A stretch of 18,236 nucleotides of DNA. Source: a virus (Duplodnaviria > Heunggongvirae > Uroviricota > Caudoviricetes). The translations under genes and the position numbers were made by a program. Below, piece by piece: positions 1,553 to 14,909 of the stretch. Position 1 is the stretch's first letter. Every line of letters begins with the position of its first letter. The notes beneath the pieces are model-generated. The model was not told the origin of the DNA. It made no database searches and saw only the letters and a program-made list of their open reading frames with translations. Location: positions 1-18,236 of IMG/VR virus record IMGVR_UViG_2695420732_000030. One strand, 5' to 3'.

Positions 1553-1741
1553 TCACGAGGACTGAAGTTTCTCGCAATTAAAATTTATCAGTTTTACTTT
1601 CTGCTCTCTGGAAACGCCTGCTTCTTTTTTACCTGAGAGCATTTTTTCGCATTCTGATTTCGTTAGTTTAGATTTTGAATATCTTGTCCAGTTAGTAGGA
1701 GTGCCACCTTCCTTTTCAATAGTGGCGGTAATTTTATACAT
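1553..1741 (-). CDS. ydaC: Small phage protein, YdaC-like (DUF1187-like), 62 aa from the SD-supported start
   Basis: Track ORF 1553..1813; the internal ATG at 1741 has a perfect GGAGG SD at 5-nt spacing and avoids an 80-nt overlap with ralR. The upstream ATG at 1813 has no SD. Position between xis and ralR as in Rac. Confidence 0.55.
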   Translation of the reverse strand: MYKITATIEKEGGTPTNWTRYSKSKLTKSECEKMLSGKKEAGVSREQKVKLINFNCEKLQSS

Positions 1742-13180: not shown

Positions 13181-13894
13181 ATGCACCGAGTCTGCTTAGA
13201 AGCTAATCGCTATTTAGATAAATATGACGCGATGGCGAAAGAGGTAAATAAGTTGCTTGGACGCATCGCCCCGCCAGCGCCAGTATTTAACGGCGAATAC
13301 GGTGACGCATATCAGGGCGCTCGTGAAGACCTGTCCATCTGGAAACGGCGAGCGCTTGAAGCTGATGAGCACGTTCGGCGACTGGAGCAAATCAATGACC
13401 ACATGGTGAAAGAGGCGCAGGGAGAATCACGCATGGGCGAGCCTGTAATACGTGAGCCAGCACCGGTAGTGCCTGAAGAAGCAACTCCGGAAAACGTAGA
13501 AATGCTCTCTGGCTATGTTTCAACGTACAAATTAACCGATAGCGAGCGCGATATTGCTGCCGAAATATGGAACGCCTGCCGCGCCGCCATGCTTCAGGCT
13601 GGAAACTTTCGGGAAAATAAGGGTTCGTCAACCAATAATTTTCGGGAAATCTCGGAAACGTCAACCAACTATCCGGTAACTCCGGATGGTTGGATAAGCT
13701 GTAGTGAGCGAATGCCGGATGATGGTCAGCACGTAATTATTTTATGTGATGGCGCATTCGTTCTTTATGCGCAATATCGAGACGGTGAGTTTTTTGATGT
13801 AGTCCGTAATGGTGATGAATTTTTCGAAACACAGAGCCGCAATGTAACCGACTGGATGCCGCTACCAGAACCGCCGCAGGAGGTGCGCCAATGA
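13181..13894 (+). CDS. Phage protein with C-terminal DUF551-like domain, 237 aa
   Basis: C-terminus WISCSERMPDDGQHVIIL...VTDWMPLPEPP resembles the DUF551 signature as recalled; weak SD. Confidence 0.6.
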   Translation: MHRVCLEANRYLDKYDAMAKEVNKLLGRIAPPAPVFNGEYGDAYQGAREDLSIWKRRALEADEHVRRLEQINDHMVKEAQGESRMGEPVIREPAPVVPEEATPENVEMLSGYVSTYKLTDSERDIAAEIWNACRAAMLQAGNFRENKGSSTNNFREISETSTNYPVTPDGWISCSERMPDDGQHVIILCDGAFVLYAQYRDGEFFDVVRNGDEFFETQSRNVTDWMPLPEPPQEVRQ

Positions 13895-13974
13895 TCTGGC
13901 CTGAAGCCTTTGCAATTACAGGCGTTGCTATAGCTATTGATTTTTTAGTATATGTTATTTGTCGGTGGGGGTAA
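13891..13974 (+). CDS. Tiny hydrophobic peptide, 27 aa (MIWPEAFAITGVAIAIDFLVYVICRWG), candidate membrane peptide; not in ORF track
   Basis: GGAGG SD 7 nt upstream; ATG overlaps the upstream stop (ATGA), suggesting translational coupling; single hydrophobic helix. Confidence 0.4.
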   Translation: MIWPEAFAITGVAIAIDFLVYVICRWG

Positions 13975-14009: not shown

Positions 14010-14114
14010 ATGTCGGATGATATTTCACTGGCAATGGAAGGTGCGCTGGCTGTTATTGCTGTTGTGGGCGTTTACTGCCTGGTTGTGTTTTTGATGGATC
14101 GACTAGGGAACTGA
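14010..14114 (+). CDS. Tiny hydrophobic peptide, 34 aa (MSDDISLAMEGALAVIAVVGVYCLVVFLMDRLGN); not in ORF track
   Basis: GGAGGG SD 4 nt upstream of ATG 14010; single predicted transmembrane helix. Confidence 0.4.
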   Translation: MSDDISLAMEGALAVIAVVGVYCLVVFLMDRLGN

Positions 14115-14122
14115 ATTCATTA

Positions 14123-14144
14123 CGATATGGGAATTCCCATATCG
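14123..14144. repeat. Perfect 22-bp palindrome CGATATGGGAATTCCCATATCG
   Basis: Exact two-fold symmetry centred on GAATTC, 9 nt after the second small-peptide stop and upstream of the putative hok promoter. Confidence 0.6.
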
Positions 14145-14156
14145 GGTAAAAACGGT

Positions 14157-14184
14157 TTGCGGTAAAGCGAGAGTTAAGTAGAAT
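14157..14184 (+). promoter_or_regulatory. Candidate hok mRNA promoter (-35 TTGCGG, 16-bp spacer, -10 TAGAAT)
   Basis: Places the TSS near 14191, giving a ~420-nt transcript ending at the 14584-14610 terminator. The 5' end GGGTGCTTGAGG (14191-14202) is complementary to 14566-14577 near the 3' end, as in hok fold-back mRNAs. Confidence 0.35.
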
Positions 14185-14359
14185 TGCTGCGGGTGCTTGA
14201 GGCTATCTGTCTCGGGCATGAACACCAACGGCAGATAGAGAAAAGCCCCAGTTAACATTACGCGTCCGGCAAGACGCTTAACATTAATCTGAGGCCATAT
14301 CTATGCTCTACATACGTAGGTTAGCCTCTTACGTGCCGAAAGGCAAGGAGAAGCAGGCT

Positions 14360-14515
14360 ATGAAGCAGCAAAAGGCGATGCTAATCGCCCTGATCGTCAT
14401 CTGTTTAACCGTCATTGTGACGGCACTGGTAACGAGGAAAGACCTCTGCGAGGTACGAATCCGAACCGGCCAGACGGAGGTCACTGTCTTCACAGCTTAC
14501 GAACCTGAGGAGTAA
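14360..14515 (+). CDS. Hok/Gef-family type I toxin, 51 aa
   Basis: MKQQKAMLIALIVICLTVIVTALVTRKDLCEVRIRTGQTEVTVFTAYEPEE shows the Hok signature (TM helix, RKxLCE, AYE); AAGGAG SD; track ORF 14303..14515 trimmed to ATG 14360. Confidence 0.8.
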   Translation: MKQQKAMLIALIVICLTVIVTALVTRKDLCEVRIRTGQTEVTVFTAYEPEE

Positions 14516-14583
14516 GAGACCAGGCGAGGGAGAAATCCCTCGCCACCTCTCATGTGTCAGGCATCTTCAACGCACCCGCACTT

Positions 14584-14610
14584 AACCCGCTTCGGCGGGT
14601 TTTTGTTTTT
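14584..14610 (+). terminator. Intrinsic terminator after hok (AACCCGC-TTCG-GCGGGTT then TTTTGTTTTT)
   Basis: GC stem with TTCG tetraloop and T-run, read directly. Confidence 0.75.
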
Positions 14611-14735
14611 ATTTTCAATACGTTTGAAGTTATGGACGATGCCGGAATAGAATCAAAAATACTTAAGTAGCGCGCAGGGAGAAGAGGGATGGACCCCGAA
14701 CAGGGGGGTGCTATTTATCTGGAAGGATTCTGTTG

Positions 14736-14909
14736 ATGAAAATTGAAGAATTACGTGAAATTTTTAGTGAAAATGGCCTCTTTGCTGTGCGCGTTGAGAA
14801 TGGGGAAGTTATCTACGCAACGTTAATCCCTGATAATCATGTAATTTTATCTATCGAGGCATTCATTGAATATCTTGAAAGGCTCGGTTTCAAGGTGATT
14901 CGGGAATGA
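14736..14909 (+). CDS. Hypothetical small protein, 57 aa (MKIEELREIFSENGLFAVRVENGEVIYATLIPDNHVILSIEAFIEYLERLGFKVIRE); not in ORF track
   Basis: GGAAGGA SD 8 nt upstream of ATG 14736; hand-translated. Confidence 0.4.
   Translation: MKIEELREIFSENGLFAVRVENGEVIYATLIPDNHVILSIEAFIEYLERLGFKVIRE

Follow-up and report, generated by a model that had tools for sequence, protein, structure and literature searches.

The window, that is, the whole stretch of 18,236 nucleotides that was analyzed, covers the left half of a prophage of the Rac family. It bears the prophage genes intR, xis, rcbA, ralR/RalA, recT, recE and kil, a repressor region, ydaT and ydaV, DUF1627, DUF977 and DUF551 genes, and three tRNAs. 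The cassette studied here lies at the early-to-late junction of this lambdoid prophage, in a neighborhood made up of two tiny ORFs, hok itself, a 58-aa ORF, the DUF1367 and DUF1364 genes, and a DUF1133 Q-like gene. The features of the cassette are collected in Table 1. For comparison, we used 30 related loci, of which two are from unclassified records and the others from Escherichia, Kluyvera, Citrobacter, Photorhabdus and Pantoea.

Table 1. Features of the hok cassette, with coordinates in the window
Feature	Position	Strand	Basis or remark
Candidate hok promoter	-35 TTGCGG 14157-14162; -10 TAGAAT 14179-14184	+	16-nt spacer
Predicted full-length hok mRNA, about 417 nt	14191-14607	+	Rfam start, terminator, MFE
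tac (translational activator), mRNA 5′ end, GGGTGCTTGAGG	14191-14202	+	fold, Rfam, conservation in 30 loci
ucb / anti-SD AAGCCCC	14243-14249	+	RNAalifold with mok SD; Rfam with tac
mok Shine-Dalgarno (SD) GAGG	14291-14294	+	8 nt 5′ of mok ATG; conserved in related loci
70-aa Mok-like ORF enclosing hok in the same frame	14303-14515	+	ORF list
Sok-like antisense RNA, predicted, about 70-77 nt	14311 to about 14235	-	collinear with K-12 sokC
Putative Sok promoter	-35 TTGCCT 14346-14341; -10 TAACCT 14323-14318	-	17-nt spacer
dcb GCCTC, alternative mok SD partner in the open conformation	14324-14328	+	Rfam, forced fold
hok Shine-Dalgarno AAGGAG	14345-14350	+	9 nt 5′ of hok ATG; CAAGGAG near-invariant
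hok (hokD-type) toxin ORF, 51 aa	14360-14515	+	Pfam PF01848, HokD identity, hokD naming in RefSeq
Small hairpin with the Tyr47 codon UAC-G (14498-14501) in the loop	14493-14507	+	RNAalifold
3′ UTR hairpin, presumably forming the 3′ end of the processed mRNA	14516-14551	+	inverted repeat I2
fbi (fold-back inhibitory element), CTTCAACGCACCC	14565-14577	+	pairing with tac
Intrinsic terminator AACCCGC-TTCG-GCGGGTT, then TTTGTTTTT	14584-14610	+	terminator scan

The 51-aa product had been attributed to the Hok/Gef family, and the Pfam search bore this out: the HOK_GEF profile was matched with 78.7 bits and E=2.4e-22 at a cut-off of 22, residues 6-47 of the toxin spanning the full profile of 42 positions (1-42). 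The toxin differs from HokD of the related loci in a single residue out of 51, and this substitution, A42T, is present also in two homologues (L011 and L012). The NCBIfam library contained no model naming this toxin, the Hok subfamily model giving 46.7 at a cut-off of 73 and the HokA model 38.3 at a cut-off of 89. The assignment was made by Pfam together with DNA identity to hokD, which settle the predicted toxin as one of the hokD type. The enclosing Mok-like frame reproduces the mok-hok layout annotated for mokC/hokC of K-12, and 23 of the 30 related loci likewise retain an upstream ORF in frame with hok.

As read from the sequence, the -10 hexamer TAGAAT is separated by 6 nt from G14191, the proposed +1. 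All 30 related loci have a -10-like hexamer at -12 to -7 from the conserved GGG, 29 of them conforming to TAnnnT; the forms encountered are TAGAAT, TATAAT, TATATT, TACAAT, TAAGAT, TAGACT, TACTAT and TATTAT, with GAAAAT in one locus, and the sequence farther 5′ of the -10 is unrelated among groups of the loci. The hok and Sok promoters were both absent from the output of a consensus promoter scan, because one hexamer in each agrees with the consensus at only 3/6 positions. The hok -35 fits at 3/6, the Sok -10 is TAACCT, and both promoters are weak by consensus. Since the scan missed them, positional conservation and the K-12 sokC annotation were used instead. The candidate hok promoter of the original prediction gained support in this way, both of its hexamers being found where it had placed them and the position of the -10-like hexamer being kept throughout the 30 loci.

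The 5′ end of the transcript is supported by Rfam. The family RF01794 (‘sok’) matched the plus strand at 14191-14365 with 107.9 bits (gathering score 59); this is a full-model match (positions 1-157), which reaches the hok AUG. The search with a covariance model had been proposed as a check of the locus, and the match started exactly at the expected 5′ end, 14191. The terminator scan likewise confirmed the strong intrinsic terminator that had been noticed after the toxin gene, with a stem at 14584-14601 of 7 bp (5 G-C) and a TTCG loop followed by TTTGTTTTT. The predicted span from 14191 to about 14607 agrees with the earlier estimate of an mRNA of ~420 nt. Both transcript ends are those that we infer from sequence. 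The hairpin at 14516-14551 in the 3′ UTR is conserved with covariation in the 30 loci (alignment columns 342-368), and, by analogy with plasmid R1 (PMC9841398), it is presumed to act as the trimming stop.

The tac/fbi helix and its conservation

The 5′-terminal GGGTGCTTGAGG and the downstream CTTCAACGCACCC form a 12-pair duplex in which C14571 is bulged out and one pair, 14201.14566, is G.U. The original prediction had pointed to complementarity between the two ends of the mRNA and had offered RNA folding as a way to check it. Folding of the full-length RNA (14191-14611) showed the pairing of 14191-14202 with 14565-14577 as the outermost, closing helix of the minimum free energy (MFE) structure, which has -163.8 kcal/mol, the shuffled sequences averaging -126.8 (z = -6.3). 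Moreover, 14565-14577 is the best partner for the 5′ end across the entire mRNA. Judged on this sequence alone, the complementarity exceeds chance only modestly, since 123 of 2000 mononucleotide-shuffled 3′ UTRs (6%) pair with the 5′ end at least as stably.

The fold-back helix is kept in 30/30 loci, with 99.4% of the cells paired, and sliding the 3′ partner by 1-3 columns as a control left only 20-58% of the cells paired. At pair 4 of the helix, 17 loci have U:A and 11 have C:G; of the remaining two, one has U.G and the other is mismatched. The helix as a whole has 11 double changes, and the observed covariation was attained in 0 of 500 shuffles. The distal half of the helix also compensates, as seen from A12:U in Photorhabdus versus G12:C in Escherichia and from A11:U in a Citrobacter locus (L043). 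The Escherichia copies have a bulged C that is absent from Photorhabdus, which shifts the register between copies by one column; this made counting covariation by column unreliable in the distal half, so that duplex folding was performed for each sequence separately. The fbi elements of the comparative set were found by a pattern requiring GC[AG]CCC, which biases the set towards the proximal half of the helix.

Furthermore, RNAalifold applied to the 30 full-length mRNAs gave the tac/fbi closing helix together with the pairing of ucb to the mok SD, with compensatory changes in 17 of 79 pairs. The tac/fbi energy, computed for a 14-nt tac against 22 nt ending at fbi, is -17.1 kcal/mol for the window sequence with its G.U pair (U14566) versus -19.8 kcal/mol for the close relatives with G-C, and in one locus of the comparative set (L009) tac is mutated. 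The comparative evidence is decisive and settles the tac/fbi pairing as genuine. As read from the alignment, the compensatory changes indicate continuing selection on RNA structure within the family.

Alternative mRNA conformations and the antisense Sok RNA

In the full-length hok mRNA of R1, the tac/fbi helix closes the molecule and ucb sequesters the mok SD, while after 3′ trimming tac occupies ucb and the SD is either free or paired to dcb; a metastable 5′ hairpin arises in the course of transcription (PMC9841398). For the cassette under study, the closed form was obtained with RNAalifold for the full-length mRNAs, where tac/fbi is accompanied by ucb paired against the mok SD GAGGC (alignment columns 56-61 with 101-107). 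The partners of the open form are seen elsewhere: both the Rfam consensus and inverted repeat I1 pair tac with ucb, and the helix GAGGC (14291-14295) / GCCUC (14324-14328) is part of the RF01794 consensus.

Constrained folding placed the open fold of the full-length RNA 10.4 kcal/mol above the MFE (-153.4 vs -163.8). For the RNA ending at 14556, just 3′ of the conserved hairpin 14516-14551, the open fold came within 0.8-1.3 kcal/mol of the MFE (-133.7 to -134.2 vs -135.0 kcal/mol). In the ViennaRNA optimum for the RNA ending at 14560, ucb and the SD stay closed and tac enters a local 5′ hairpin, an analogue of the metastable hairpin of R1. In other words, the open form of the shortened RNA is predicted to be near-isoenergetic with the MFE structure and is not the MFE itself. 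The calculated energies fit a switch that would be triggered by the loss of fbi, and as such are suggestive, not decisive.

The antisense RNA, which originally could not be pinned down, was placed by homology to the annotated sokC of K-12. The sokC annotation (NC_000913 16952-17010) aligns to 14311-14235 of the window, and the whole hokC/sokC alignment to the window has a mean column identity of 78%. The range of 14250-14360 expected earlier for Sok was roughly right, except that it merged the RNA (14311-14235) with its promoter (14318-14346). The predicted 77-nt Sok would comprise a single-stranded 5′ tail of 15 nt, a long hairpin and UUUUCUCU, with a folding energy of -31.8 kcal/mol (z = -4.65), and its tail covers the mok start codon. 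The pairs of the hairpin covary among the 30 loci (A:U in 21 and G:C in 9 for one pair; G:C in 20 and A:U in 9 for another). TAACCT precedes by 6 nt the position aligned with the 5′ end of K-12 sokC. The Sok promoter region is near-invariant in the 30 loci; it overlaps dcb and the hok SD, so that this conservation is not creditable to Sok alone. Judging from these data, the sequence features of a Sok gene, namely the putative promoter, the 5′ tail, the hairpin and the U tract, are all present.

The strand of the Rfam match deserves attention. In K-12, RF01794 hits the sense strand of hokC (L002 402-554, minus), and the annotated sokC lies on the opposite one (L002 453-511). The model therefore describes the open form of the hok leader. 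This means that the Rfam family named ‘sok’ models the sense hok leader, and a match to it marks the strand opposite the antitoxin.

A separate observation concerns the coding region. The small hairpin around the Tyr47 codon has 3 bp, and two of the three pairs covary (alignment columns 309:323, C:G 16 / U:A 14; 310:322, G:C 20 / A:U 7; the third pair is 311:321). TadA-dependent A-to-I editing that recodes Tyr to Cys has been reported for the hokD mRNA (PMC12214031). By analogy, A14499 is a putative TadA editing site (Tyr47 to Cys), matching the reported site in hokD.

Relatives and distribution of the cassette

One of the closest known systems is hok/sok (parB) of plasmid R1, the prototype of type I toxin-antitoxin systems. 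The two have in common the hok ORF with the overlapping mok ORF, the elements tac, ucb, mok SD, dcb and fbi, whose alternative pairings agree, the 3′ UTR hairpin and the terminator, as well as the cis-antisense Sok with its promoter inside the mok/hok translation-initiation region. The R1 locus is plasmid-borne, whereas that of the window is prophage-borne, and outside the hokD group, plasmid hok loci resemble the window at the DNA level over only about 75 nt around the mok/hok initiation region.

Among the chromosomal loci of K-12, hokD (relF) of the Qin prophage has the same toxin as the window at 50/51 residues, and its DNA is 96.2% identical over 14346-14660, including the 3′ UTR, fbi and the terminator. 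However, in K-12 hokD the promoter, tac, ucb, the mok start and the Sok segment, all present in the window, are missing, and the gene follows immediately on relBE. Its homology begins only at 14346, so that K-12 hokD is a leaderless remnant of the intact type seen in the window. In the hokC/mokC/sokC (gef) locus of K-12, the first 14 nt, GGGTGCTTGAGGCT, are identical to those of the window, and the leader, the mok frame in phase with hok and the Sok layout are the same. In place of fbi and the terminator, both present in the window, K-12 hokC has IS186. The Sok/sokT hairpin of the window is 18 nt longer than that of sokC, an extension common to hokD-type loci, and the Sok -10 is TAACCT in the window versus CACTCT in sokC.

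The cassettes of phage Rac (MN652886.1), Rac-SA53 (KU052037.1), 933W and PPompW are 88-96% identical to that of the window, with point differences only. These Rac-family and Stx phages also share the gene order, i.e., replication genes, small ORFs, hok, a rem-like ORF, DUF1367, DUF1364 and a Q-like gene. Phage Rac is annotated with mok and hok, 933W with hokW/mokW, and PPompW with ‘gef: phage maintenance protein’; the Rac, Rac-SA53, 933W and PPompW records carry no annotation of a Sok RNA.

In the best-matching genomes, the same prophage adjoins ttcA and has hokD in the identical slot. The original prediction noted that K-12 Rac has no hok at this position, which is correct: in K-12 Rac, ydaW directly adjoins the rzpR pseudogene, and hok is absent because the stretch with hok, DUF1367 and the Q-like gene is missing there. 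The suggestion that the locus is strain-specific cargo was wrong, since the cassette is matched in 4726 of 5426 complete E. coli genomes (87%), almost always annotated as hokD, and is carried by the Rac and Rac-SA53 records. The coverage of the cassette is at least 80% in 2964 of the matching genomes, and a positive genome has it at a median of 2 places (maximum 10). In about 3000 genomes, it is 89-99% identical with intact ends. The homology in E. coli typically starts between 14144 and 14178 and stops at 14602-14610; these limits coincide with the promoter and the terminator, and hence the cassette is a self-contained unit. We also found it in 79 phage records, including phage Rac, Rac-SA53, 933W, VT2-Sakai and PPompW, and on some plasmids. 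A 2026 preprint catalogued 44,248 Hok homologues and reported their enrichment in prophages (bioRxiv 10.1101/2025.08.07.668861).

Proposed mechanism, alternatives and meaning

All sequence elements of the R1 regulatory model are present in the window and in register. We conclude that the locus is very probably an intact hokD-type hok/sok cassette working by the RNA mechanism of the R1 type. By analogy with R1, the weak promoter would yield a stable mRNA of about 417 nt, in which the 5′ tac is bound to the 3′ fbi and ucb holds the mok SD, such that the full-length RNA would be neither translated nor bound by Sok. Slow trimming from the 3′ end would then take off fbi, allowing tac to move to ucb and leaving the mok SD free or paired to dcb; translation of mok would drive the coupled translation of hok. 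Under normal conditions, the short and unstable Sok would bind the processed mRNA around the start of mok, forming a duplex that would then be destroyed. When transcription stops, either upon loss of the prophage DNA or upon host shut-off by an infecting phage, Sok would decay first, and in its absence the membrane toxin Hok would be made, damage the inner membrane, and kill or arrest the cell. The 3′ processing, the instability of Sok, the toxicity and the biological role are those that we infer from the R1 model. The chromosomal hokA, hokB and hokC failed to mediate post-segregational killing (bioRxiv 10.1101/2025.08.07.668861), which makes the role of the prophage copy uncertain.

The main alternative is a hok relic that has decayed or fallen silent: it would look complete, yet be unexpressed or non-toxic and persist only by hitch-hiking in the prophage. 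Precedents for such decay are provided by K-12 hokD, which has lost its leader and is homologous only from 14346 on, by K-12 hokC, where fbi was lost to IS186, and by the mutated tac of locus L009; the reported failure of chromosomal hok loci in post-segregational killing, the weakness of both promoters by consensus and the G.U pair in the fold-back helix point in the same direction. Against this, each element that the R1 model needs is present and in register, and the toxin gene has an uninterrupted frame with a single residue changed from HokD, A42T, a change found also in L011 and L012. Also speaking against decay are the roughly 3000 genomes that carry the cassette at 89-99% identity and with its ends intact, as well as the compensatory changes, which argue for ongoing selection on RNA structure in the family. 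We consider the relic explanation improbable, and an intact, R1-type cassette remains our preferred reading.

Two further proposals are very nearly without credit. One holds that the 5′ and 3′ ends match by chance, the 3′ UTR being rich in G+C, and that the mRNA has no fold-back regulation. The 6% of 3′ UTR shuffles that pair as stably with the 5′ end would permit it for this sequence alone; however, the site is the best in the whole mRNA and closes the MFE structure, and the pairing recurs with compensatory changes in 30/30 loci from five named genera and two unclassified records, while in the slid controls only 20-58% of the cells are paired. The covariation effectively refutes the chance explanation. 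The other proposal, of equally negligible probability, concerns the 3′ UTR and terminator (14524-14605), which could be taken for an IsrK-like trans-acting sRNA controlling the downstream antirepressor/Q module, given a sub-threshold match to the full isrK model (Rfam RF01394, 26.5 bits, E = 0.0004-0.0014 in local searches). This score is far under the gathering score of 50 and reflects mostly the generic hairpin-plus-terminator shape, whereas the true isrK of Gifsy-1 (79.3 bits) is located after the Q gene and overlaps the C4/a1b1 antirepressor-control RNAs; hok is not mentioned in the IsrK paper. The IsrK-like candidate was rejected as sub-threshold and as differing from Gifsy-1 isrK in both position and system.

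Both the hok/sok family and its RNA mechanism have been described before, as has its occurrence in prophages and even in phages of the Rac type, and the locus by itself matters little for discovery. It is of practical use in annotation: RefSeq lists only the hokD CDS for these loci, and the mok ORF, Sok and the predicted mRNA ends are transferable to thousands of genomes. Moreover, the intact copy in the window shows the form that K-12 hokD had before relBE came directly upstream.

As to the biological role, one may imagine that the cassette is a sensor of transcription shut-off which gives lysogens abortive infection against superinfecting phages and does not serve prophage stability, with lethality tuned by TadA and cross-protection by Sok. 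We regard this as a rather unlikely, speculative view. If it were true, TadA editing at A14499 would tune the lethality of the toxin, and the Sok RNAs of near-identical copies could cross-protect, thereby linking the fates of co-resident prophages.

Putative editing-site hairpin and Rfam matches in the hok locus

The hokD mRNA is reported to carry a TadA A-to-I editing site, which changes Tyr to Cys (PMC12214031). In the hok mRNA studied here, a 3-bp hairpin presents the codon for Tyr47 in its loop (see the table), and two of the three pairs covary among the 30 aligned hok loci, one pair being C:G in 16 and U:A in 14 loci, and the other G:C in 20 and A:U in 7. Judging from the sequence, the hairpin with A14499 matches the hokD site and represents a putative editing site.

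RF01794, which Rfam calls "sok antitoxin", matched the hok mRNA leader in the sense orientation (14191-14365, plus strand) rather than the antisense RNA. The K-12 hokC/sokC locus (L002) gave a match at 402-554 on the minus strand, opposite to the strand of the annotated sokC. Annotation from RF01794 matches would place Sok, the antisense antitoxin RNA, on the wrong strand and would also make it too long.

The hok 3′UTR showed a resemblance to the Rfam model of isrK (14524-14605, plus strand; 26.5 bits, below the gathering score of 50), which spans the 3′UTR hairpin, the 3′ fold-back element (fbi) and the terminator. We judged this resemblance to be due to chance; the true isrK of Gifsy-1 is located in a different context.

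Sequences flanking hok and other RNA genes of the prophage

Two tiny hydrophobic ORFs lie shortly upstream of hok, neither having a match in Pfam or NCBIfam. The 27-aa ORF shares an ATGA overlap with the stop of the DUF551 gene, while at the position of the 34-aa ORF a related strain has a 105-bp "hypothetical protein" gene in RefSeq. The perfect palindrome that follows is not flanked by a run of T on either strand, and could serve as a protein-binding site or form an RNA hairpin. Downstream of hok, the 58-aa ORF had no family match; its position is occupied by rem in K-12 Qin and phage Rac.

Features of the hok surroundings and other RNA genes in the window
Feature	Position	Strand	Remarks
RalA small RNA	1557-1735	+	225 bits, full length
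27-aa ORF	13891-13974		tiny, hydrophobic; shortly 5′ of hok
34-aa ORF	14010-14114		tiny, hydrophobic; shortly 5′ of hok; MSDDISLAMEGALAVIAVVGVYCLVVFLMDRLGN
Perfect 22-bp palindrome	14123-14144		CGATATGGGAATTCCCATATCG; between 34-aa ORF and hok promoter
Tyr47-codon hairpin	14493-14507		3 bp; UAC, then G, in loop
Promoter-like site	14624-14653		TTGAAG, 18 nt, TAGAAT; directly 3′ of hok terminator
58-aa ORF	14733-14909		downstream of promoter-like site
STnc100	16910-17118		175.6 bits; after three tRNA genes
AgvB	17119-17178	-	56.2 bits, just at gathering score 56; after three tRNA genes

RalA lies opposite a ralR-like ORF, and the two are a second type I toxin-antitoxin pair of the same prophage. 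The three tRNA genes 3′ of the DUF1133 Q-like gene are Met-CAT (annotated as tRNA-Ile in a related genome), Arg-TCG and Arg-TCT. Together with STnc100 and AgvB (region 16549-17178), they give the late region an arrangement that is typical of Shiga-toxin-producing E. coli prophages.

Damaged copies of the cassette

In other genomes, several of the copies on the chromosome show visible damage. The 5′ element of the mRNA (tac) is mutated in L009, and a recognisable hok leader is absent from L010, L027 and L040, being replaced in L010 and L027 by the same unrelated upstream sequence. The hokC-type locus L017 has lost fbi, as has K-12, where IS186 occupies its place. The cassette thus exists in decayed as well as intact forms side by side.
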